From NCBI GenBank assembly GCA_943358385.1, contig CALRGX010000006.1:3559-67558 (forward strand): a DNA stretch of 64,000 nt, read 5' to 3'. The translations under genes were made by a program, and so were the position numbers. How positions within the stretch are numbered: the stretch's first letter is position 1; every line of letters begins with the position of its first letter. Below, piece by piece: positions 787 to 11,225 of this stretch. Origin of the DNA: Parcubacteria group bacterium. Lineage in GTDB: Bacteria; Patescibacteriota; Minisyncoccia; Phycocordibacterales; UBA2100. Under the pieces are notes generated by a model. That model was given only the letters and a program-made list of their open reading frames with translations, was not told where the DNA came from and did no database searches.

Positions 787-2064
787 CTACAGCGCTGACA
801 CTGATTCATCCTTGATAATCTGCGATTTACCTTGCGGGACTCGAGGAATTGAAGTAACGCACTGGACAGAAACGGCGATGTTCTCGCCAATACGCGCCTG
901 GACACGTTTTACAATATCGGGCCCGTCGCTTGTATGATATGCAGGGCCGGGCAACACTCGTACGCATATGTTCGTTTCAGTGAGCTTTACGACTTGATAC
1001 GAGATAATCTTATCCATAAATGAGTCCAGGGCAGCATCAAACTCAAAGTGATGGTATCGCTTGCCACCAAGAGTGAGAAAAGCGCCATATCGACCTTCAA
1101 TCCAAATGCGCGGGGCGTAGAGTCCACAGGCGCATTGCGTCCATGATATCTTTCCACAGTCACCCGTGTCATAGCGCACAAAAGGCATTTCGTCGTTGTA
1201 CAGGTCAGTTACGATCACACGGCCAAACACGCCGTCTGAACAGGGAGTGCCTTTGTCGTCAAGAATTTCTACCACGAAACTTTCGCAGTTCACATGGAAG
1301 CCGTTATGCTGCGCACATTCCACTCCCACGGTGCCAAACTCCTCCAATCCGTAGCGGTTGTAGATGGGGCAATGGAGGGCCTCTTGTACGACTGCTCGAG
1401 TGGCCGGTGACAAATTTTCAGAAACAGAAACGACGTACCGGGGCGAAAGCACCAACCCGTGCTTGTGCACATAGGTGGCCAACTCGAAAAGAATCGAAGC
1501 GTGGCTTTCAATAATGTGTGGCCCAAAATCAATGATGCACTGGACAGCGCGCGCGGTGTCATTGAGAAAGTCGGTAACAGGGACAACTAGGTGATTGAGC
1601 TTGTTATTGGGCAGCACTCGAATGTGTGCAATGCGCATCCCCTGTGCGCGCACAACCCACGGCTTGTCCCAAAAAAGAAAGCGATAGTGTAGTGAGTCAC
1701 CATACCACGGAAGGCGGACGTGTCTGCGCCTCAGGGGGTTGAAAGGTGCTCCACTTGATCCAGAGGTTTGCGCCCAGCGGCCACGTAAGGACCGACTTCG
1801 ATTTGTATACTCTCTGACTGGCTTGTTCAAGAAAATCGCCTTCGAGGTGACGGGCAATTTTTTTAGATCAGCGAGCGTTCTAATTTCTGCAGGTCGTATG
1901 TCTGCTTTTTTTAAAAGCTCCGCATACAGTGGTATGTGTGAAGCAATCATCGGAATGAGTCGCCGCAATCTTCCTGTCTGCCACTTCTTAATAGCCGTGA
2001 CTCCACGCAAATGCAACACGTGGAACTTGAAAAAAAGAATCTGGCGTCTCAACTTATTAAACAT
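787..2064 (-). CDS. PaaK/F390-synthetase-family adenylate-forming enzyme, paralog 2 (phenylacetate-CoA ligase / CapK-like).
   Basis: It carries the TSGSSGAPF adenylation motif and an RYDTGD motif typical of the PaaK/F390 synthetase family. The start is trimmed to M47 of the track ORF (cat at 2062..2064), because the longer ORF would overlap the upstream paralog by 134 nt and the homologous N-terminus begins there. Confidence 0.85.
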   Translation of the reverse strand: MFNKLRRQILFFKFHVLHLRGVTAIKKWQTGRLRRLIPMIASHIPLYAELLKKADIRPAEIRTLADLKKLPVTSKAIFLNKPVREYTNRSRSLRGRWAQTSGSSGAPFNPLRRRHVRLPWYGDSLHYRFLFWDKPWVVRAQGMRIAHIRVLPNNKLNHLVVPVTDFLNDTARAVQCIIDFGPHIIESHASILFELATYVHKHGLVLSPRYVVSVSENLSPATRAVVQEALHCPIYNRYGLEEFGTVGVECAQHNGFHVNCESFVVEILDDKGTPCSDGVFGRVIVTDLYNDEMPFVRYDTGDCGKISWTQCACGLYAPRIWIEGRYGAFLTLGGKRYHHFEFDAALDSFMDKIISYQVVKLTETNICVRVLPGPAYHTSDGPDIVKRVQARIGENIAVSVQCVTSIPRVPQGKSQIIKDESVSAL

Positions 2065-2068
2065 GCAA

Positions 2069-3415
2069 CTAGAAGGCTTTAATGTAGTAGAGGGCTTTGC
2101 CGCTTTTTGCAGGCTCAATACGGTCAACCGTTTCCCATTGCAGACGTGCATTCGGATGCAAGGATCGCCGGATGCGATTTTGCAAAGCCTCGCGTCTGTC
2201 ATTAAAGGAAGGTCCAGGAATGATACGGAGAGTGAAATCCAGTGGAGCCGTCTGCACTATTTGATACTGATGTACTGCATCCCAATATGCGTCAAACAAC
2301 GGCGAGATGTCGAGCAGTGAAAGTGTATGACCATCGCCCAGATCAATGACATCTGACTGCCGGCCTGAGAAGGTTATGGTTCGTAGGGTTCGTCCGCACG
2401 AGCATGCGTCGACGTCTATACTTCCTCGGTCGCCGATATCGTAGCGAATGAAGGGCATGACGGTGTTATCAAAGGTGGTAACGACAATCCGACCTTCTTG
2501 GCCATCGGGCAAACGGCGCCCCTGCGCGTCGACTATCTCTAGGTAAGCCCATTCCTCGTTAACGTGCATTCGTTTCTTTTCACACTCAAAACCGAGCCAT
2601 CCTAATTCTCGCGTCGCGTACGTGGTATAAAACGGAGCTTGAAAAACGTCTTCAATCATCTGCCTATCACGCGCCCCAATCCCTTCACCAGTGGCCACCA
2701 GGGCAAAAACACTAGGCACGGAAACCCCTTTGCGCACTTGCTTGGCAAGTTCAACAATCCACGAGGTATAGCCATACAGGATGACGGGGTGTGTGCGCAC
2801 GCGAAGTGTGGCTAGAAGTTCGGCGAGTCGATACTGTATGTCTGCTGACGCAGCAAGATAAAACATGACATGCCGATAGAATATGAACCCAATACGATGT
2901 CGTGCACGCATTGAAATAACATCATGCCGGAGGCCATGCCCCACGGCGTAAAATGTTCGTTCACAAAACGCAAAGCAGCGCAGCTCAGAGCGCCATCCGA
3001 AGTAGTAGCCAAATGGGCGTCCTGTTGACCCTGAGGTGAAGTCCTGATGACTGCGCTTGAGCTCGTCGACGCTCGTGAATTCAGAATCTTCTCTTCCTGC
3101 GTAAGTACTTTTGGACGAAATGGGCAATAGCTGCAATTGGTCGACCGGGTCACCCTTCTCACGCTCATAGGTTTGCAATTGTTTTTGCCACAGTGGCAAT
3201 AGTTTAGCCTCTTGCAAAAGCGTATCTAAACGGTCGTTGGCGAGTCGGTTCAAGCGAGTTCGCGGCCAATACTGACTTAGCAATAAGGAGCGAACATCAA
3301 AAAAGAGCGGGATACGCCGAAGTGGGGTTGTGAAAATAAGCGGATGCGTCCAGAGCGCATCGCTGCGTAGTCCTTTTTTTTTGAGTACCTGTTCAGTAAG
3401 GTCCATAGAGCGCAT
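2069..3415 (-). CDS. PaaK/F390-synthetase-family adenylate-forming enzyme, paralog 3.
   Basis: It carries TSGSTGRPF and RYDIGDRG motifs and shares the overall layout of paralog 2. Its stop lies 4 nt before the start of paralog 2. Confidence 0.85.
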   Translation of the reverse strand: MRSMDLTEQVLKKKGLRSDALWTHPLIFTTPLRRIPLFFDVRSLLLSQYWPRTRLNRLANDRLDTLLQEAKLLPLWQKQLQTYEREKGDPVDQLQLLPISSKSTYAGREDSEFTSVDELKRSHQDFTSGSTGRPFGYYFGWRSELRCFAFCERTFYAVGHGLRHDVISMRARHRIGFIFYRHVMFYLAASADIQYRLAELLATLRVRTHPVILYGYTSWIVELAKQVRKGVSVPSVFALVATGEGIGARDRQMIEDVFQAPFYTTYATRELGWLGFECEKKRMHVNEEWAYLEIVDAQGRRLPDGQEGRIVVTTFDNTVMPFIRYDIGDRGSIDVDACSCGRTLRTITFSGRQSDVIDLGDGHTLSLLDISPLFDAYWDAVHQYQIVQTAPLDFTLRIIPGPSFNDRREALQNRIRRSLHPNARLQWETVDRIEPAKSGKALYYIKAF

Positions 3416-3427
3416 CTCAGTGCATTC

Positions 3428-4057
3428 TCACTGAATTTCAGACTTTTCCCTGCGCGACTGCCACCATTCCCAGCCCATAGGGAGAAAGGACGCAATGATG
3501 ATTACCCCAACAATGGGGAGAAGGTATTTCTCTACATCGGGTATCAGTGAACCGAGAAAATACCCTGCCAAAGTTACTCCGGTCGCCCATGCGAGAGCAC
3601 CAATGATGTTGTATCGGGTAAAGGTACCGTAGGGCATGTGTGCAGCCCCCGCCACAATCGGTGTAAAGGTACGCACTGCAGGAATAAAGCGAGCGAGAAT
3701 AATCGCCATAGCGCCTTTTCTATCAAAAAAAGCACGCGCGTCCTCAACACGTCGGTGGCTAAAAAGAAAGGAATCAGGACGCGTGAAAATGTAAGGACCG
3801 GCTTTTCTCCCCGACCAGTACCCCACCGCATCACCTAAGATTGCACAGACGGTAAGCAGTGGGACCAGTATCCAGATGTTTAATAGGCCCTGTGAGGCAA
3901 TAAAGCCCGCAGTAAAAAGTAAACTATCGCCTGGTAGAAAAAACCCAAAGAAAAGTCCAGATTCAGCAAAAACAATTGCCGCAAGGCCTGCGTAACCTGC
4001 AGATTCAACCAGGGTGGGCAAATCGGGGACGAACATACTAAAACTCGAGGGATTCAA
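3428..4057 (-). CDS. DedA-family (VTT/SNARE-associated domain) inner-membrane protein.
   Basis: It shows the multi-TM DedA signature (FLPGDSLLFTAGF ... ARFIPAVRTFTPIVAG). It is co-oriented with and 10 nt upstream of the PaaK-like triplet. Confidence 0.85.
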   Translation of the reverse strand: MNPSSFSMFVPDLPTLVESAGYAGLAAIVFAESGLFFGFFLPGDSLLFTAGFIASQGLLNIWILVPLLTVCAILGDAVGYWSGRKAGPYIFTRPDSFLFSHRRVEDARAFFDRKGAMAIILARFIPAVRTFTPIVAGAAHMPYGTFTRYNIIGALAWATGVTLAGYFLGSLIPDVEKYLLPIVGVIIIASFLPMGWEWWQSRREKSEIQ

Positions 4058-4250
4058 TGTTGCTCAGTTGCTCGTAGCTCGAAAGAAACGAAGGGATGGC
4101 GAACATAAGGCCAAGAATTGGCAAGACCAATGCAACGACAGTGGCGATGACCATCCCCAGAAAGTATTTGCGAGTTTTCTCTACTGAAATGTAAATGGCG
4201 TCTACTTTTTCTTCTAGATGCGCAAGTTTTTTCCACGTTTCGGTGTCCAT
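4038..4250 (-). CDS. Small hypothetical membrane protein (70 aa, one TM).
   Basis: The ORF has a hydrophobic core (VIATVVALVLPILGLMFAIPSF). It overlaps the DedA start by 20 nt and would be the first gene of the minus-strand operon. A TATAGT -10-like hexamer sits just upstream. Confidence 0.4.
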   Translation of the reverse strand: MDTETWKKLAHLEEKVDAIYISVEKTRKYFLGMVIATVVALVLPILGLMFAIPSFLSSYEQLSNIESLEF

Positions 4251-4422
4251 ATGTAGGCACTATAGCACTCAATTGTTCATCACCCGTGTGGAGCAATATG
4301 AGCATAAGGGGGACTTGACGTATCATGTGTGCGTGCTATGGTGCTGTCGGTCAAGACAGAGTCTTGGCACTTGGGCACTGCCCAAGTACTGAGGATAGCA
4401 ACAGAAAGTTGGAGAACGCACC

Positions 4423-4761
4423 ATGCGTAGTTTCATCGCGATCCTTGCACTCGGCACCGCCTGCCTTCTTCCACTCTCCTCGGCTTCGGCAGCAACATGC
4501 CAGGAGCTCAAGGCGGCCGACGACAGCCTCGTCAATGCCGTAGCGGCCATCGACGCGAAAGTGGTGAGCCCACTTGATGCCCTGAAGGTCTCGGCCGCAC
4601 AGCTCGCCGCCATCACCGACATCGACCCCGACAAGCGCAAGAAGATCGCCGACACCGTGGCCGCCCTTCTGGCCGCAAACGCTGGGCCCGAGCCCGTGAA
4701 AAAAGCGTTCGGCGAGGCGCGCACTGAGGTTGCCGACGCTCGCACGAAGAAGAAGTGCTGA
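4423..4761 (+). CDS. Hypothetical secreted protein (signal peptide, Ala/Lys-rich, about 63% GC).
   Basis: The N-terminus MRSFIAILALGTACLLPLSSASAA is a signal peptide. A TTGACG-16-TATGGT promoter-like pair lies at about 4313..4340 and a terminator hairpin follows the stop. Confidence 0.6.
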   Translation: MRSFIAILALGTACLLPLSSASAATCQELKAADDSLVNAVAAIDAKVVSPLDALKVSAAQLAAITDIDPDKRKKIADTVAALLAANAGPEPVKKAFGEARTEVADARTKKKC

Positions 4762-4784
4762 CGCCAGTCAGCCCACTGAACAAC

Positions 4785-4811
4785 AGGCGCCCGGACATTG
4801 TCCGGGCGCCT
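4785..4811. terminator. Bidirectional terminator hairpin between convergent genes (AGGCGCCCGGACA / TGTCCGGGCGCCT).
   Basis: A 13-bp inverted repeat sits between the stop of 4423..4761 (+) and the stop of 4810..5130 (-). There is no clean U-run. Confidence 0.5.
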
Positions 4812-5130
4812 ACTTATTACGCACGATCTTTTCGTAGCGCTGCTGTGCATGGACAAGCTCAAGCAGCGCTTTAGTACGCGCGTCCCAACATTTTGTGTAA
4901 TGACCATTGCGGAAGCCATCTGGGTTGTTTACTTTTTCCCATGCCTTATGCCGTTTAATAAATTCTTCTTGCAGCAGTGCAACTTTTTTGCTTGCCATGT
5001 CTGAGCTCCATTTTTCTGCCGCCAGTATACATGGTCTGCTCTTTTGTTGCTTTTCCCAGGATGGAAAGTCTATCCTGCTATTCACGAGCTGCGGAGACGT
5101 CTTATGTAAGGACATCAGCCTCACTGCCAT
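4810..5130 (-). CDS. Hypothetical small protein (the start may be the internal M at 4995, giving 61 aa).
   Basis: The ORF overlaps the GIY-YIG gene stop by 10 nt in the same orientation. I recognised no family. Confidence 0.4.
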   Translation of the reverse strand: MAVRLMSLHKTSPQLVNSRIDFPSWEKQQKSRPCILAAEKWSSDMASKKVALLQEEFIKRHKAWEKVNNPDGFRNGHYTKCWDARTKALLELVHAQQRYEKIVRNK

Positions 5131-5375
5131 TCACCATTTATTAACTTCTGTTTTTTCTCCACTGTCCACCCTTTGAGTTGAATTTCCCGCTTCCTTGCTT
5201 CTGATTTGTTCTGGAATGGATTCGATACATACACAAGAATGAATGGACCCTGCTGTCTCGCCATACTCGACCCGAGGCCCGCATTGTGCTTGCGGAGCCG
5301 TTTTGGCGGATCATTAGTGATACCAACGTAATGTCTTCCTGTTCCTGTGGCAGCAATGTATACAAACCAACTCAT
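5121..5375 (-). CDS. GIY-YIG (URI) domain small nuclease-family protein (COG2827-like).
   Basis: The motif WFVYIAATGTGRHYVGITNDPPKRLRKHN matches the GIY-YIG signature (GIY, YVG, R, N) of stand-alone 80-100 aa URI-domain proteins. Confidence 0.75.
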   Translation of the reverse strand: MSWFVYIAATGTGRHYVGITNDPPKRLRKHNAGLGSSMARQQGPFILVYVSNPFQNKSEARKREIQLKGWTVEKKQKLINGEWQ

Positions 5376-5456
5376 ATATTTTGCTGCCCTTCGACAAGCT
5401 CAGGGTACTTCACCTCGCTTCTCAGTTTACACTGAGCGAGCGAAGCGAGTCGAAGT

Positions 5457-5475
5457 GTGGACCCATGGAGATTCG
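5457..5475. repeat. Exact 19-bp direct repeat (GTGGACCCATGGAGATTCG) copying the 3' end (T-loop to discriminator) of tRNA-Ala. Candidate distal att-like site.
   Basis: It is identical to 8369..8387 inside the tRNA-Ala gene. The flanking bases differ on both sides (t vs g before, g vs a after), so this is a discrete 19-mer rather than a larger duplication. Confidence 0.8.
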
Positions 5476-5797
5476 GGGTCAAGTCACTAAGATTTTGCGG
5501 CGCTGCACTAGCAAAATCTAAGTGCTTCCTCCCCGAGCTCGCCGACAAGCGCTCGTTACACTCGCCTTGTATACCGGCCCCGCTTTTCGAATCTCCCTGT
5601 ATCCTACAAAACAAAAGTCGCCGAATGCTTACGCATCCGACTCCTTTGTTTTGTGGAGATTGTACCGCAAAGTTCGGACCTATTTCAAACAGAACCCGAT
5701 CTGATGCGCGCGCCGCGTGCGCTGTATCGCATTCCAACAAGGTACGCGCGGAGCGCGTGCCAACACTGGGCACCGCCCGCCGCCGCGAAGGGGCGGC

Positions 5798-5888
5798 AAC
5801 CCCGAAAGAAACCGCTCCTTGCATTTCTGATTCGGCGGGGGTGAATTCGTGCATTCAAAAAAAGGAAAGGGCGGTTTCTTTCGGGGTT
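5798..5888. repeat. Perfect 18-bp inverted repeat (AACCCCGAAAGAAACCGC / GCGGTTTCTTTCGGGGTT) flanking a 55-nt loop that contains GAATTC, inside the non-coding part of the islet.
   Basis: The arms at 5798..5815 and 5871..5888 are exact reverse complements. Additional hairpins lie at 5490..5518, 5889..5904 and 5918..5951. Confidence 0.6.
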
Positions 5889-6090
5889 CTGCCCTTTGGG
5901 CAGGGGCGGCGCAAATGCGAACGGCTCAGATACCGGGTATGCGAGCCGTTCAATGCAAATACAAGTGGTATCTCGCCATTCAAAAGTCTTTAAGGAATGG
6001 CGAGACGCAAATCTATTTGCGCTTGGCCCGACCCGCCCATCCGCGCGCAAACATCCGCCGCAAGGAAAAGATGCGGCGGAGGACTCCCCG

Positions 6091-8265
6091 TTAGTCCCGA
6101 TATGACGTTATTGTTTCTGCTTGGTCAAAATCAATGCAGTAGACTTTCGGTGGCTTGTCATAATTTTCCGTCCCGTCGCTATTTTTTTCAAACACCAAAC
6201 AAAAGTTATCCCAGTGCATATGTCCATGTTTTATTCCTAGTTCACCGAGCCCCTGCCAAATCTTTCTGTACTGCGTGTTTACGTGGTCAAACCAGCGTGG
6301 GCTTTTTTCTGCCCATGCTCTGAACGGAATACCTACCACCCCAGACGATACATACACCTTTGACGGATCATGCGAATCTGGTCGAACAGACAAAATTGGT
6401 TCAATTGGTACATATGAAAAACCCAATTTTTTCCAGGTCTGGTGAGCCTCAAAGGCTTTACGCCACTGTAAATACGAATCCGCTTTAATATGTCTTACGA
6501 TTTCTTTCTCTTTGAACTTACCACCTAACAGGTCTAGCTCACTGCCTGTTTTGTCGAACCTTGTTCGTCTGCCGACCTCAGTTGTCGCGTACAAAGTATT
6601 TTCAACTGCCTCAATGGGCGCAGTTTTCTCTATGAGCGCTTGCGCCTCAGGAGATAGGTCGCGAATAAGTGGGAATGAGCCATTTCTGCCAGCTTCGTTA
6701 AGATCTCCTGTGACAATCCTTCGCATTCTAGGTTCTGGGTCTTGAATTGCGGCTAACACGTATTTTTCTCTCAAGGACGGCGGGAGTTGAATTAGATTTT
6801 CCAAAGCGTAGAGCTTATCAGCCGGTGTGCTATTGAAATTACCCTCTATATATTCATCCAGTTTCTTAAACAACTGACTTGAATACTTCTCTGGCAGGGA
6901 CTCTATCAATTGTCGAAGCCGAGGGTGGTCTAAATCTTTATCAGGCGACAATTTCGCTGCAATCGTTCGTGATACGTCTTCGTACCCCATCTCAGCTAAA
7001 TCGGACGGTAGCGTTCTCAGTAACATTACTAACTCAGGCGTTTCTTTGCGCTTTAGAATTTCAGACCAAAGTAGTTGTTGAGCGTATAACTTATCCTCTG
7101 ACTCTGGCATTTGAGATATCACTTTCGCCAAGTCCGTTCCAGTTTCAAACAATCCATTCCCTGAAAGCCCTTTCTTTATTTGCTCAAAACGCGCTTGTGG
7201 CGGTAAATGAAAAATGAGTTTTGCCGCCGCACGTTGTTTTTCATAGTTTTTATTCCAAGCGTCATTGACCCACTGTTCCAAGCGTTCTGTCGGGATACCT
7301 GCTGTCTTATCTGGTGGAAGTTTTGAAATAGCCTCCGCTGCACTATCTCGTACCCACGACTCCGCGTCCTCAAATGCGAGAATAAGGATTGGCAATTGTG
7401 CGTCAACTGGCAGCTCCTCTATTTGTTTGATTGCATCAACTTTCTTCGTCGAAGCGTGCTCACCTTTGTAATTCTTGAAAATGTACTCGATAGGTTTTAC
7501 AAGTTGCGAACCTCTCATTCCTTGCATAACTTCCCCAACGTCAAACAGATCCTTAAAATCTTTTGACTTCGTTTTCTCCGATATCCATTCGTCAACGCGC
7601 GCATAGTATTCACCACGCTGCTTTTCCTCAAGAAAATCAATGAACCTAACCGCCGTCGACGTCAAATCGCCACTGCCGAGTTCAGCGTCAATCAAATTTT
7701 TCATACCACTTTGTAGACGAGGAAGAAGTGCGGACGGGAGTTTTTCAAGCAAATTTAAAACTTTTTCACGTACGTCCCATGTCATGTCTGAAAGTACAGT
7801 TTCAAGATAAGCGGGCTGTAATTGTGTTGGCAGTAGACCCACCAGCTGCACAGCCGAAGCCCTGACTTTCGAGTCGGTTGAATTTATATTCTCTGCTATT
7901 TCCTGTCCAAGTTTCTCGAATGCAGCGTCCTGAGCACTCTCGGATAAAGTCTTTGCAGCAACACGCGCGGAGCGTCTAACTTCGGGGTCTTTATCCTTGA
8001 GAGCAGCGACTAGTGCCGAAGTCTGTTCGGCGGCCGGCATTTGCGGAATCATATCAGCGGCGCGTTTGCGCGTTTCCGAACTTGCACTACTTAAATCATA
8101 TTGGACTGCTTTGTTGATTTGAGTCTGAACAATCGCGTTTGACGTTTGATATCTACGAAGCCAACGCTTTGCCACTACTTCAGGAATACCTTCTGGCACA
8201 TACATTTCGAGCGGAATTTCCACTCCGCTCGGTTGATTCAGTTTGGGACTCTCGCGCATCTTCAT
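6091..8265 (-). CDS. HEAT-repeat protein with a C-terminal atypical protein-kinase-like (RIO/Kdo-kinase-like) domain.
   Basis: The 724-aa ORF has N-terminal PBS-lyase/HEAT-like repeats (DKDPEVRRSARVAAKTL; DAESWVRDSAAEAISKL; MTWDVREKVLNLLEKL). The last ~230 aa show a kinase-like order of motifs: a beta3-like IVRHIK, an HGHMHWDNF stretch aligning to the HGDLxxxN catalytic loop with Asp replaced by His, and VYCIDFDQA resembling the IDFxQ/DFG segment. Its GC content is lower than its neighbours. Confidence 0.8.
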   Translation of the reverse strand: MKMRESPKLNQPSGVEIPLEMYVPEGIPEVVAKRWLRRYQTSNAIVQTQINKAVQYDLSSASSETRKRAADMIPQMPAAEQTSALVAALKDKDPEVRRSARVAAKTLSESAQDAAFEKLGQEIAENINSTDSKVRASAVQLVGLLPTQLQPAYLETVLSDMTWDVREKVLNLLEKLPSALLPRLQSGMKNLIDAELGSGDLTSTAVRFIDFLEEKQRGEYYARVDEWISEKTKSKDFKDLFDVGEVMQGMRGSQLVKPIEYIFKNYKGEHASTKKVDAIKQIEELPVDAQLPILILAFEDAESWVRDSAAEAISKLPPDKTAGIPTERLEQWVNDAWNKNYEKQRAAAKLIFHLPPQARFEQIKKGLSGNGLFETGTDLAKVISQMPESEDKLYAQQLLWSEILKRKETPELVMLLRTLPSDLAEMGYEDVSRTIAAKLSPDKDLDHPRLRQLIESLPEKYSSQLFKKLDEYIEGNFNSTPADKLYALENLIQLPPSLREKYVLAAIQDPEPRMRRIVTGDLNEAGRNGSFPLIRDLSPEAQALIEKTAPIEAVENTLYATTEVGRRTRFDKTGSELDLLGGKFKEKEIVRHIKADSYLQWRKAFEAHQTWKKLGFSYVPIEPILSVRPDSHDPSKVYVSSGVVGIPFRAWAEKSPRWFDHVNTQYRKIWQGLGELGIKHGHMHWDNFCLVFEKNSDGTENYDKPPKVYCIDFDQAETITSYRD

Positions 8266-8284
8266 AGTTTATCAGATTATCAGC

Positions 8285-8339
8285 GGAGTGGCATTTCCTT
8301 GCGGAAATGCCACTCCATGCGCGCGGCTCCGCCGCGCGC
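8285..8339. promoter_or_regulatory. Two adjacent GC-rich hairpins between the tRNA-Ala 3' end and the start of the islet gene. The first is a perfect 14-bp-stem palindrome with a 4-nt loop (8285..8316) and the second is an 8-bp GC stem (8319..8339).
   Basis: The arms GGAGTGGCATTTCC and GGAAATGCCACTCC are separated by ttgc, and GCGCGCGG / CCGCGCGC by ctccg. No U-run follows on the tRNA strand, so this is not a canonical intrinsic terminator. Confidence 0.5.
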
Positions 8340-8367
8340 CCTTTGGATTTCTCGGCAAATTCAATCG

Positions 8368-8442
8368 GGTGGACCCATGGAGATTCGAACTCCAGACCTT
8401 CCGCTTGCAAAGCGGTTGCTCTACCAACTGAGCTATGGGCCC
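8368..8442 (-). tRNA. tRNA-Ala (anticodon UGC).
   Basis: The reverse complement reads GGGCCCAUAGCUCAGUUGGUAGAGCAACCGCUUUGCAAGCGGAAGGUCUGGAGUUCGAAUCUCCAUGGGUCCACC. It has a cloverleaf with the G3:U70 Ala identity pair, an anticodon loop UUUGCAA, a GTTCGAATC T-loop and discriminator A. CC is encoded and the terminal A is not. Confidence 0.9.
8369..8387. repeat. Proximal copy of the 19-bp direct repeat, lying inside the 3' end of tRNA-Ala.
   Basis: It is identical to 5457..5475. Confidence 0.8.
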
Positions 8443-8528
8443 AACATAAAACTGCGCACAGAAAACCGAGTGGCAGTATACCAAGGCTTTCCAAAAAAGT
8501 GTAGGGTTCACCGTCCCCAGCAAAAATG

Positions 8529-9500
8529 CTAGAAACCACGCTGTGCAGTTACCACCAGGTGGTCTACGAACTGCGGCAAGGACGTACCAATTGCATTGAG
8601 TGCCTTTGGGATGAGCGATTCTGCAGTCATCCCAGGGAGTGCATTTGCCTCGAGGAAGTACACCTTACCGTTCCTACCAATGCGGAAGTCTGATCGCGAG
8701 TAATGTGCTAACCCGAGTGATTCGTGCGCGGTGCGGGCAGCATCTTCCAGCCGAGTCTTGAGATCATGCGAAAAGGTTGATGGGCACAATTCTCGCGTCG
8801 CCCCACTGTATTTTGCATCGTAGTCAAATAATGAATCGTTCGCCAAAATAATTTCGACGGGAGGCAGTGCATACAGGTCTTGTCCACGGAAATCCTCGAC
8901 GACCCCCACTGTTGCCTCTTGTCCCACAATGAACTCTTCCACCAGCACTGATTCGTGTGCCTCAAGCGCATCTGCAATTGCATGGGCGAGCTCCATGAAC
9001 GTCTTGGCGAGTGTAAGACCAACTGAGGAGCCACCAAAGGCCGGCTTGATGATGTAGGGCGGCGCAAATGTGGCAAACACCTGATCGGCCATGGCTGCAG
9101 CGTTGCAATCATTCGGTAGTGCAAAGAACAGGCCGCGTGGCACAGCAATTCCCTGCTCACGCAGGACTACTTTTGCACGGTTTTTGTGCATTGAAAGCGC
9201 AGCGCCAGATGCGCGCGAGCCGGTATACGGAATTCCCGAGCGCTCCAGAAATCGCTGCACAGTGCCGTCTTCGCCGTAGGTGCCGTGCAAACCATTAATG
9301 ACGACATCTACGCCCGTAAGTGCGCGCAGCGGGTCCATGGGTCGCCCATTTCTGTGCCAGGCGCCGTCACGCGCTATAAACAAATCGTGTGGATGGTAGC
9401 GCTCTTCATCGAGTGCCGCCAGAAACGAGGCACCAGTTTTCAGCGACACTTCATATTCTGGTGAGGGACCACCGCGCAACACGCCGACAACGGTTTTCAT
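8529..9500 (-). CDS. ddl: D-alanine--D-alanine ligase.
   Basis: It has the ATP-grasp Ddl layout (MKTVVGVLRGGPSPEYEVSL ... IIKPAFGGSSVGLT ... EEFIVGQEATVGVV ... YFLEANALPGMT). The start is set at MKTVV, 20 codons into the track ORF. Confidence 0.9.
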   Translation of the reverse strand: MKTVVGVLRGGPSPEYEVSLKTGASFLAALDEERYHPHDLFIARDGAWHRNGRPMDPLRALTGVDVVINGLHGTYGEDGTVQRFLERSGIPYTGSRASGAALSMHKNRAKVVLREQGIAVPRGLFFALPNDCNAAAMADQVFATFAPPYIIKPAFGGSSVGLTLAKTFMELAHAIADALEAHESVLVEEFIVGQEATVGVVEDFRGQDLYALPPVEIILANDSLFDYDAKYSGATRELCPSTFSHDLKTRLEDAARTAHESLGLAHYSRSDFRIGRNGKVYFLEANALPGMTAESLIPKALNAIGTSLPQFVDHLVVTAQRGF

Positions 9501-9560
9501 ACATCCAGTATAGCAAGCAAAAGCAGCAACCTGTTGTTGCTGTAAACAAATTCCTGCCAC

Positions 9561-10793
9561 CTATCCCAAGAGTGCACGTCGCATTTTTTTTCTATGGAAA
9601 CCAATGGCGAAGCGGTGCGATTCAGCGTTGGCAAGGAGAATTTCACGCTGATAAGCTTTCTTTTTTGTAGAATCACCAAGAATCTCCTTTGCTTTGTGGT
9701 ATTCGTCTTTGAGCACACTGACCACGGGGACGTTAATGCCCAATTTTTCCAAAGTGCGTATAGCCATCGCAAGCTGCCCTTTCCCACCATCAATTACTAC
9801 CAATTGTGGTAGGGTCCACTCGCTATGCGCAAAGCGTCTTTGGAGTATCTCCTGTAACGCTTTGGTGTCGTCGTTTCCCACTGTGTGTACGTTAAATTTG
9901 CGGTAGTCGGACAGCTTGGTCTCACCATGCTCAACTACAGTCATAACTCCAACGGTCGCTTTTCCTGCCAAATGCGCAATGTCGTATGCCTCAATACGTA
10001 CGGTGCCACTTTCACCACCCGCCGAGTGGAAATCTCCCTTAATCAGCGCAACATCACGAATGTGAGTAAGTGCGTACACTTGTTTGCGTAAGTGAGCGGC
10101 ACTCTCAAATGCTTCGTTTTTTGCTGCGGTTTGCATTGCCTTTTCTAGTTCCTTGAGTAGTGCGTTCTTCTTTCCACTAAAAAGGAGAATAATGTGCTTG
10201 ATGATTCGTGCATAGTCACCCTTACTACAAGATCCATCGCATACACCGGGGCACAAGCCGAGCTGCCGGTTGAAGCATGGCTTGGGAAACTTTTGTAGTG
10301 CGGCTATCTGGCATGCATCGCGAAAAGGAAATATTTTGCGCACGAGCTTCATCGCGACCTTCAAGGCACCACCTTCAGGGAATGGGCCGAATAGTTTTTT
10401 TATATCCTTTTCCTGCCAATTTTGAAAGAGTTCACGACCACGTACCACCAATACACGTGGATACTCTTCTTTGGTGATGACGAGATAGTTATAACTTTTG
10501 TTGTCCTTTTCGCGCGCGTTGTATGGCGGCTGGTGTTTTTTTATGAGGTTTGCCTCTAGAATAAGGGCTTCCAGTACTGAATCTGTCGCTTCCCACGTAA
10601 TGGTGTCGGCCTCTTCTACCATCACCCGAATACGAGCTCCACGAGTGCTGGTGAGGTCTTTTGAAAAGTAGCTACGCACTCTGTCTTTGAGAGAGGTGGC
10701 TTTCCCCACATACAGTAGTTTTCTTCCTTTAAGAAAGCGGTAGATACCAGGTGTATCTGGCAAGGCACATTGTTCAAATTGAGCGCGTTCCAT
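9561..10793 (-). CDS. uvrC: Excinuclease ABC subunit C, short form (about 410 aa) lacking the C-terminal (HhH)2 domain.
   Basis: The N-terminal GIY-YIG domain (GIYRF...LYVGKATSLKDRVRSYF...YN) is followed by a Cys motif (CPGVCDGSC), a UVR region (FESAAHLRKQVYAL) and the RNase H-like endonuclease domain (IEAYDIAHLAGKATVGVMTVV...LVVIDGGKGQL). The protein ends after that domain. The start is at MERAQFEQ. Confidence 0.85.
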   Translation of the reverse strand: MERAQFEQCALPDTPGIYRFLKGRKLLYVGKATSLKDRVRSYFSKDLTSTRGARIRVMVEEADTITWEATDSVLEALILEANLIKKHQPPYNAREKDNKSYNYLVITKEEYPRVLVVRGRELFQNWQEKDIKKLFGPFPEGGALKVAMKLVRKIFPFRDACQIAALQKFPKPCFNRQLGLCPGVCDGSCSKGDYARIIKHIILLFSGKKNALLKELEKAMQTAAKNEAFESAAHLRKQVYALTHIRDVALIKGDFHSAGGESGTVRIEAYDIAHLAGKATVGVMTVVEHGETKLSDYRKFNVHTVGNDDTKALQEILQRRFAHSEWTLPQLVVIDGGKGQLAMAIRTLEKLGINVPVVSVLKDEYHKAKEILGDSTKKKAYQREILLANAESHRFAIGFHRKKMRRALLG

Positions 10794-10862
10794 ACTGAGT
10801 GACCATATCAAATAAATGTGTATAGTGCATGCAGCTCCACACCTGATAAGGAAGAGACGGTC

Positions 10863-11225
10863 ATGCCTGAAGAACATAGCCGGCCACCCGGCGCACAGAA
10901 AAATGCCTGGTGGATAACGTCGCAGAATGACAATCAAGAAGGTCTGCCAGATTCTTTCCCATACTACCGTTGTCGAGCAGGTTTGGCACTTGTCGGTTAC
11001 CTACTCATCCAACTGCTAATCCTCATGTGCGCCACGTGGTACCAGACGGAGTTGGTGCGTATTGGACGTGAGATGCGTATTACGCCCATAGACACTCAGA
11101 TGACGTCCCTCGTGGTGACTGCGTTGTTTGCAGCAGCGGGTACCCTAATTGCCACGGTATGGGCGGCGTGGGTCCTTATAGGAAACGCCCGGTTACTGAA
11201 AAGCGTCTGTCGCGAATGGCGCTAA
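10863..11225 (+). CDS. Hypothetical membrane protein.
   Basis: The ORF has two hydrophobic segments. The start is chosen at MPEEH to avoid overlap with uvrC. A terminator hairpin follows. Confidence 0.4.
   Translation: MPEEHSRPPGAQKNAWWITSQNDNQEGLPDSFPYYRCRAGLALVGYLLIQLLILMCATWYQTELVRIGREMRITPIDTQMTSLVVTALFAAAGTLIATVWAAWVLIGNARLLKSVCREWR

Follow-up and report, generated by a model that had tools for sequence, protein, structure and literature searches.

A HEAT-repeat protein with a predicted C-terminal half-kinase domain bearing His at the catalytic-Asp position, encoded on a strain-specific insert at a tRNA-Ala gene of a Parcubacteria group bacterium

What kind of protein is encoded by a gene that lies beside a transfer RNA (tRNA) gene in a Parcubacteria group bacterium, joins HEAT repeats to a segment with kinase motifs and carries His where kinases have their catalytic Asp, and how did this gene reach its place? 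It occupies positions 6091-8265 of a 64,000-nucleotide stretch of contig CALRGX010000006.1 (assembly GCA_943358385.1, contig positions 3,559 to 67,558), which we refer to as the window. An initial annotation had delimited it there as an open reading frame (ORF), which is real and encodes 724 residues; its strand needed correcting, to minus. The gene is complete, consists of a single ORF and ends with its stop codon at 6091-6093, while other assemblies set the start two codons later, giving 722 residues. It is highly probable that the gene belongs to a large, hitherto undescribed protein family, found among named records mostly in Patescibacteria (Candidate Phyla Radiation, CPR) and in some DPANN archaea, that couples HEAT repeats to a C-terminal domain predicted to adopt the first half of a protein kinase fold. 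In this genome the gene is accessory, carried by a strain-specific insert of 2.7 kb that abuts the 3' end of a tRNA-Ala gene.

Relatives surfaced through an exhaustive HMMER search with the C-terminal region alone (residues 521-724, 204 residues), which matched 516 cluster representatives (50% identity) at E<=1e-3, 419 at E<=1e-10 and 62 at E<=1e-30, the closest non-self matches being 44-49% identical. The same region gave nothing meaningful in Pfam, NCBIfam, PADLOC or PDB sequence searches; the main family profile likewise gave nothing meaningful in Pfam or NCBIfam and matched no PDB chain at E<=10, the family consensus produced only coiled-coil noise in Pfam, and a word-indexed search with the full protein recovered only itself and one HEAT/NACHT protein. 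In the relatives the domain always lies at the extreme C-terminus (the tail beyond it has a median of 0 residues and a 90th percentile of 4), preceded by an extension of 8-578 residues (median 324). Profile searching of an annotated collection yielded 108 proteins that bear the names 'hypothetical' or 'HEAT repeat domain-containing' and have no Pfam domain in the C-terminal part; they stem from Nealson-, Kaiser-, Uhr-, Kuenen- and Moranbacteria, Paceibacterota and a few DPANN archaea (ainarchaeum, Woesearchaeota). One peptide pattern run over 185,579 one-per-species GTDB genomes revealed 107 encoding stretches, whose named carriers are Patescibacteria lineages and DPANN archaea (Pacearchaeota, Woesearchaeota, Nanoarchaeota), and some genomes hold two family copies. 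No eukaryotic homologue was present among the named matches of the profile and pattern searches, and we found no description of this family in the literature or in curated models.

About 20 carrier records, all from one automated series of metagenome-assembled genomes, are labelled Gammaproteobacteria, Bdellovibrionales or Methanosarcinales; these labels could not be confirmed and may be placeholders or reflect contaminated bins, and if they are correct the range of the family extends beyond Patescibacteria and DPANN.

The N-terminal part of the window protein is a HEAT-like alpha-solenoid of ~14 helix pairs (residues ~46-545; 6631-8130, minus strand), as indicated by Pfam, PDB sequence matches and modelling. 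Pfam HEAT scores 42.3 bits against a cut-off of 23.5 at residues 291-316 and HEAT_2 scores 42 bits against 27.7 at residues 58-119, with many further helical-repeat families below threshold; designed alphaRep HEAT-like repeat proteins head the PDB sequence matches (E=1e-8), and NCBIfam yielded a weak match to NblB, a PBS-lyase HEAT protein, and nothing more. A single-sequence AlphaFold2 (AF2) model of the full-length protein is all-helical to about residue 560 and mixed alpha/beta beyond, at a mean predicted local distance difference test score (pLDDT) of 50.6. The assignment of the N-terminal ~480 residues to HEAT/PBS-lyase-like repeats thus stands, with the restriction that only some repeats pass the HEAT thresholds and that the remainder are all-helical in this low-confidence model. 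Ahead of the solenoid lies a conserved peptide (residues 18-43; 8137-8214, minus strand) with the family-wide pattern P..MY.I.G...I......RY...K, in which P18, M21, Y22, G26, R38 and Y39 are kept in ~75-93% of 95 aligned full-length sequences (the window protein and 94 relatives). Among these 95, HEAT_2 was found in 52 and HEAT in 28; they matched 69 Pfam families (E<=0.01), of which the 25 listed include no kinase family. Because N-terminal peptide, HEAT repeats and half kinase are common to hundreds of proteins, they represent a family architecture and not a one-off fusion. The 'eukaryote-like architecture' first proposed is not supported if read as a statement on origin, since the whole arrangement recurs in hundreds of Patescibacteria and DPANN proteins and the repeats are of a prokaryotic type.

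The C-terminal domain spans residues ~556-718 (6112-6600, minus strand), that is ~165 residues and not the ~230 suggested initially, and several lines of modelling and profile comparison assign it to the protein kinase-like superfamily. AF2 prediction of residues 541-724 with 108 homologues gave a confident model (pLDDT 83.7, predicted TM-score 0.79) with the element order beta1-beta2-beta3-helix C-beta4-beta5-helix D-helix E-catalytic loop-beta7-beta8, followed by a DFG-equivalent motif and the chain end, which is the fold order of the superfamily. Of the 325 PDB matches that Foldseek returned at E<=1e-3, the best 50 have a kinase fold without exception and include VRK1/2, p38, ERK2, CLK1/3, Ire1, CDK11, TTK and the kinase domain of the lanthipeptide synthetase ThurKC, with TM-scores normalised to the query (TMq) of ~0.4-0.54 and 10-16% sequence identity; against viral models there were 80 matches at E<=1e-3, of which the named ones are mostly kinases or phosphotransferases. 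Structure prediction and structure search thus bear out the kinase-like fold that had been suspected from motifs. Divergent family members connect the domain to known kinases by sequence as well: P0242 scores 23.9 bits for the Kdo/WaaP family (PF06293), above its Pfam cut-off of 21.3, in a match covering helix E, catalytic loop and DFD motif, P0243 matches this family in the same region below the cut-off (18.1 bits, E=0.0019), and P0233 shows a faint APH match (E=0.075). When a profile of 15 divergent members was compared to PDB, all 36 matches at E<=10 proved to be of kinase fold (35 protein kinases and one aminoglycoside phosphotransferase), headed by CK1 delta/epsilon (E ~0.02), which align from beta5 through the DFG motif.

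What sets the domain apart from these kinases is, first, its extent. The protein ends 10 residues past D714, as is the pattern throughout the family, so that the activation segment and helices F-I of a complete C-lobe are missing and sub-domains I-VII only are present. Directly before the domain lies an invariant pair, L558-Y559, common to the family despite very variable numbers of HEAT repeats; together with the N-terminal peptide it is a candidate intramolecular ligand or modification site.

Second, the residues at the predicted active site deviate from the canonical set in a conserved manner, as counted in 292 non-redundant full domains. The stretches IVRHIK (589-594), HGHMHWDNF (680-688) and VYCIDFDQA (708-716) had been recognised before as kinase motifs in kinase order, and they are near-invariant in the hundreds of relatives retrieved, which puts the resemblance well outside coincidence. 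The beta1-beta2 turn at the position of the Gly-rich loop reads K572-T-G574-S575 (6541-6552, minus strand, like all codons given here), with K in 286, G in 283 and S in 270 of 292. Beta3 carries R591 (6493-6495) at the position of the ATP-binding Lys of VAIK, R in 283/292 and K in only 4/292, and the Glu at the end of helix C, E606 (6448-6450; 260/292), is kept and is its putative salt-bridge partner; K594, which had been taken for the beta3 Lys, is retained in only 56/292. E622 is retained in 291/292. The equivalent of the catalytic loop, H680-G-H682-M-H684-W-D-N687-F688 (6202-6228), has H680 in 288, H682 in 282, H684 in 255 and N687 in all 292 domains, and the DFG-equivalent motif I711-D712-F713-D714 (6124-6135; codons ATT GAT TTT GAC) has D712 in 292/292 and D714 in 291/292.

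The register of the loop is fixed by exceptions within the family. Five members have Asp at column 682 (HRDFANKN, HRDTNLGN, HLDIADRN, HDDIADRN and HGDIHWEN), all with the canonical spacing H-x-D-x4-N and Asn at D+5, and the CK1 alignment places 'HgHlhdkNF' over 'HRDVKPDNF' and 'YlIDFDqAk' over 'YIIDFGLAK', which equates H682 with the HRD Asp, H684 with the Lys two residues on, N687 with the Asn at D+5 and D712 with the DFG Asp. These Asp-bearing members, the Kdo matches of P0242 and P0243 and the CK1 profile alignment are three independent lines that put H682 at the catalytic-Asp position, in agreement with the earlier reading of HGH as a replacement of H-x-D. Since four of the five members with Asp at 682 also lack H684, the two His co-vary. 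Judged by this alignment, the presumptive Mg-binding residues N687 and D712 are near-invariant, along with D714, the R591-E606 pair and K572, while the catalytic Asp and the next Lys are systematically replaced by His (H682 and H684).

A difference between sequence records touches this region: the window and a metagenome contig of the European Nucleotide Archive (ENA; ERZ27280191 k141_625623, 71.4 kb; L001) differ by 6 mismatches in ~18,000 bases, and one of them lies in codon 581 (window position 6524), which encodes Gly in the window and Asp in the ENA and NCBI copies (L001, L172). G581 is the family-consensus Gly of an LLGG motif preceding beta3.

The closest counterparts in extent are OspG and NleH, type III effectors of Shigella and enteropathogenic Escherichia coli, which likewise end shortly after the DFG-equivalent motif and have neither activation loop nor helices F-I (PMC3585378). 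The example of OspG demonstrates that a kinase can be active with sub-domains I-VII alone (PMC3585378). A bound partner (ubiquitin/E2) makes up for the part that OspG lacks, a role that the HEAT solenoid may play in cis here. Unlike this family, which has Arg at the position of the beta3 Lys and His at that of the HRD Asp, OspG retains every canonical catalytic residue; this family also occurs in other phyla, has no surrounding type III secretion genes and carries fused HEAT repeats. Sequence similarity to OspG/NleH was not found, as the main profile matched no PDB chain; the OspG structure, which we take to be deposited in PDB, would have been among the chains searched.

In motif style the closest loops are those of Kdo/APH/RIO-type and CK1/VRK-type kinases. 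Kinases of the Kdo/WaaP, RIO/Bud32 and APH style carry HGDxHxxN followed by IDFD or IDFxQ and a G-x-x-x-P-x-P stretch ahead of beta4. Kdo/WaaP is the sole curated family reached by sequence, and it is reached via P0242 and P0243, the window C-terminal domain and the family consensus being without a match (E<=5-10); compared to it and to RIO/Bud32/APH-type kinases, our family has His for the catalytic Asp, Arg for the beta3 Lys and no C-terminal helices, and the LPS (lipopolysaccharide)-core context of Kdo/WaaP is absent, the genes lying in Patescibacteria genomes among unrelated neighbours. RIO kinases are marked by an STGKE-type loop, an HGDLSEYN catalytic loop and an IDxxQ motif, which the segments KTGSE and IDFDQA resemble, yet RIO1 in Pfam gave no match for the window protein (E<=10), nor for the consensus or 19 divergent members (E<=5), and it does not appear in the listed 25 of the 69 families that the 95 full-length sequences matched. 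The CK1/VRK group supplies the best structural matches (VRK1/VRK2; TMq ~0.5, E ~2e-5) as well as the best profile matches, but at 10-16% identity, with catalytic residues not kept and no C-lobe in our domain, the resemblance is too weak for a specific relationship within the superfamily. Helical-repeat scaffolds and a kinase or pseudokinase also share one chain in the eukaryotic phosphatidylinositol 3-kinase (PI3K)-related kinases (PIKKs; mTOR/ATM), Vps15 and SCYL1, by analogy only; PIKKs carry a PI3K-like kinase, Vps15 and SCYL1 carry the kinase N-terminally, and the repeats here are of the prokaryotic HEAT_2/alphaRep (PBS-lyase) type.

How might such a domain work? Because the metal ligands are invariant and the His, His and Arg replacements are conserved like catalytic residues, we consider an enzyme or ATPase that binds Mg-nucleotide and depends on His more likely than a dead scaffold. 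In this scheme the half-kinase domain would still bind Mg-nucleotide and catalyse, in a non-canonical and His-dependent manner, phosphoryl (or nucleotidyl) transfer or ATP hydrolysis, and the HEAT solenoid would supply in cis what the missing C-lobe provides in other kinases, namely structural support, here of the exposed face, and binding of a partner or substrate, possibly with participation of the L558-Y559 motif or the N-terminal peptide. The sporadic, mobile distribution and the variable number of repeats suggest interaction with other organisms, either a host cell or phage, in preference to a housekeeping role. Taken as a whole, from undescribed family and architecture through half kinase to His-dependent mechanism, we give this account an even chance of being right; the catalytic mechanism by itself, which is deduced from residue conservation, is put forward tentatively, at somewhat under that chance. 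A bolder version, which we think rather unlikely, holds that the family is a new catalytic class in the kinase fold, with a cis HEAT solenoid for the C-lobe, a His-His loop and a beta3 Arg supporting non-Asp chemistry, and that it serves CPR and DPANN organisms as a mobile, fast-evolving tool against hosts or phages; candidate chemistries would be a phospho-His intermediate, an ATPase switch or nucleotidyl transfer.

Several observations weigh against the favoured account. The window protein itself matched no kinase model directly by sequence, and alignment of the family profile by hhalign to single, approximate sequences of Bud32, APH(3')-IIIa and PKA gave probabilities of at most 1.2%, with local registers that hint at a match but do not count as evidence. 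The Foldseek TM-scores are modest (~0.5 of query) with large root-mean-square deviations, the active-site geometry is drawn from motif order and secondary structure alone, and the poor quality of the full-length model makes the HEAT-kinase contact a conjecture. PADLOC returned a weak HEAT/ARM repeat match in the HEAT region of the full-length protein (E=5.5e-6) and a marginal HORMA match for the C-terminal domain (E=0.029), and no relative was found among IMG/VR viral contigs. Finally, a domain missing both the beta3 Lys and the HRD Asp is a pseudokinase by the usual sequence definition, and many such domains are non-catalytic.

The last point leads to the strongest rival, a true pseudokinase: a non-catalytic module, perhaps stabilised by nucleotide or metal, that serves as a switch or docking surface in a protein that as a whole is a scaffold or adaptor. 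Replacement of both canonical residues, complete loss of the substrate-binding C-lobe, fusion to a classical protein-protein interaction scaffold and the lack of partner genes pointing to a pathway would all fit. Yet degenerate pseudokinases usually lose the metal-binding Asn or Asp, and both are kept in 292/292 domains here; H682, H684, R591 and K572 are under equally strict conservation, the interchange of His and Asp at 682 fits a conserved acid/base role, and the OspG precedent shows that truncation after sub-domain VII is compatible with activity (PMC3585378). We therefore regard a pseudokinase as a serious but minority possibility.

A second alternative, which we deem improbable, is that the kinase fold has been repurposed, either with H682/H684, D712/D714 and N687 forming a transition-metal site for hydrolysis or other chemistry, or for a SelO-like AMPylation-type transfer. 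The invariant H-x-H-x-H string beside two invariant Asp does look like a metal-binding cluster, H682 and H684 co-vary, and kinase folds with non-kinase chemistry exist, as in SelO and SidJ. This alternative has no known precedent, and no metallo-enzyme family was matched in Pfam, NCBIfam or PDB sequence searches; in established kinase structures the first His of the HRD motif packs into the kinase core, so that only two of the three His would be expected at the site, and the residues of the Gly-rich turn and the Arg-Glu pair are kept, as expected for nucleotide binding. That the motifs resemble a kinase fortuitously and the C-terminal region is not kinase-like is strongly disfavoured and very improbable in our view: the absence of direct Pfam, NCBIfam or PDB sequence matches to kinases for the window protein or main profile and the hhalign values near 1% speak for it, and they are outweighed by a confident AF2 model that matches kinases only, a member above the Pfam Kdo cut-off, the uniformly kinase-fold PDB matches of the divergent-member profile in the expected register and a canonical HRDxxxxN loop in some family members.

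We then turn from the protein to its location. The gene sits 103 nt downstream of tRNA-Ala(UGC) (8367-8443, minus strand), the 3' end of which is the insertion point of a strain-specific islet of 2,711 bp (5658-8368) that comprises the gene with flanks of 103 nt on its upstream and 433 nt on its downstream side, and no integrase; the HEAT-kinase gene is the only ORF called inside. Informative close strains were obtained by a UvrA homologue search, the window UvrA being 77-89% identical to proteins named Parcubacteria or Kaiserbacteria. One of these strains, represented by contig L165 from another sample (ERZ1758448), is 96% identical to window positions 17164-8369 (8.8 kb) and then runs straight into 5657-5044; its tRNA-Ala ends exactly at the junction and 5658-8368 is missing, which identifies this segment of the window as a strain-specific insert. 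The initial view that the gene lies alone on an acquired islet is thereby supported. The islet occupies this site in three further assemblies, whose copies of the gene differ by 0-2 nt, and more distant relatives keep the order UvrA-UvrC-Ddl-tRNA-Ala without the gene. Its GC content (45.1% versus 51.5 +/- 2.6%) and GC content at third codon positions (41.9% versus 52.1 +/- 5.3%) are the lowest among 32 long ORFs. Homologues elsewhere reside in unrelated housekeeping contexts, where no operon partner is conserved across 84 loci and the most widespread neighbour family occurs in at most 5 of the 84. A survey of homologue distribution and neighbourhoods, which had been proposed along with the initial annotation, thus revealed no conserved neighbours and no sign of a conserved core gene at this site. 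A Ddl-based metagenome scan found relatives at <=48% identity only, and a megablast of window positions 4000-11000 against the E. coli genome gave no match.

That the gene is instead a vertically inherited core gene and the 'islet' a deletion artefact or assembly error is disfavoured and has very little probability: the islet contigs are near-identical, so that presence is documented in one population only, and a deletion in L165 is formally possible, but the L165 junction is exact at the last tRNA-Ala base, species with the same gene order have no such gene there, base composition deviates as described, homologues lie in unrelated contexts and only 107 stretches in 185,579 species genomes carry the pattern used.

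The features that the islet shares with tRNA-gene-targeted islands are insertion exactly where a tRNA gene ends at its 3' side, a close relative in which the site is empty, presence or absence between close strains, deviant GC content and tRNA-end debris nearby. It departs from typical examples in its size of only 2.7 kb, in having no integrase of its own (a serine recombinase lies ~7.5 kb off, outside the islet) and in lacking tRNA-derived attachment repeats, its flanking repeat being only 5-9 nt (TCCAC, or AATCTCCA..C).

If the half-kinase domain is active, it would reveal a novel means of running, or re-purposing, the active site of a kinase, and a helical-repeat domain would be able to replace half of the kinase fold. 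Three supposedly essential kinase features are changed at once, His for the catalytic Asp, Arg for the ATP-binding Lys and no C-lobe, and their conservation across hundreds of divergent sequences points to function rather than decay. Even as a dead scaffold the family would be a new, large bacterial and archaeal pseudokinase family outside curated databases. Patescibacteria and DPANN comprise tiny symbionts from two unrelated groups, and very little is known of the machinery through which they interact with their hosts; a strain-variable, horizontally moving gene is a concrete candidate for a part in symbiont-host or symbiont-phage interaction.

Several further features of the locus were recorded. 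An exact 19-nt copy of the tRNA-Ala 3' end lies at 5457-5475 (minus strand; other copy 8369-8387) and was considered as the islet border; it was rejected because the islet-less L165 has the same copy, with one mismatch, and its presence there identifies it as an attachment-site remnant of an older event. An inverted copy of the tRNA-Ala 3' end (84%) at 5586-5604 also occurs in L165, and a short fragment of this end, AATCTCCAC, is found at the distal end of the islet (5658-5666). With several such fragments, the first two of them present in L165 too, the tRNA looks like a repeatedly used insertion hotspot. In three independent assemblies of a related species with UvrA 88% identical (L166, L167, L168) the sequence ends within or at tRNA-Ala, downstream of Ddl, which is what strain-variable sequence past the tRNA would give.

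The non-coding 3' part of the islet (433 nt; 5658-6090, minus strand) is GC-rich (58%) and dense in hairpins, for example 5777-5826 with 5860-5909, 5919-5951 and 5971-6005, and its predicted fold energy of -207.9 kcal/mol compares to -162 +/- 6.4 for shuffled sequences (z = -7.2). It showed no credible Rfam family and no second copy in the window or in ~170 examined loci; candidate identities are a structured RNA, an array of terminators or a substrate for recombination of the mobile unit. The part of the islet that separates tRNA-Ala from the start of the gene contains an inverted repeat of 14 bp without mismatches (8285-8298 with 8303-8316) as well as a 9-bp palindrome of G and C only (8319-8339), which might act as operators, terminators or recombination sites.

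Downstream of the gene, a 160-residue ORF (5372-5854, minus strand) extends across the islet border. L165 has kept no more of it than the 94 residues at the C-terminus (94.7% amino acid identity); the counterpart there is a 173-residue ORF (L165 8786-9307) that starts inside the tRNA, and the N-terminal part of the 160-residue ORF is probably non-coding. Farther downstream of the hotspot, window positions 787-3415 and L001 14860-20845 encode three paralogues in tandem, weakly similar to CapK_C/AMP-binding proteins, together with a membrane protein of the VTT/DedA type, a small GIY-YIG protein and the serine recombinase, the last just beyond the window. None of these genes lies beside Ddl-tRNA-Ala in related species, and the stretch may be a larger, older island.

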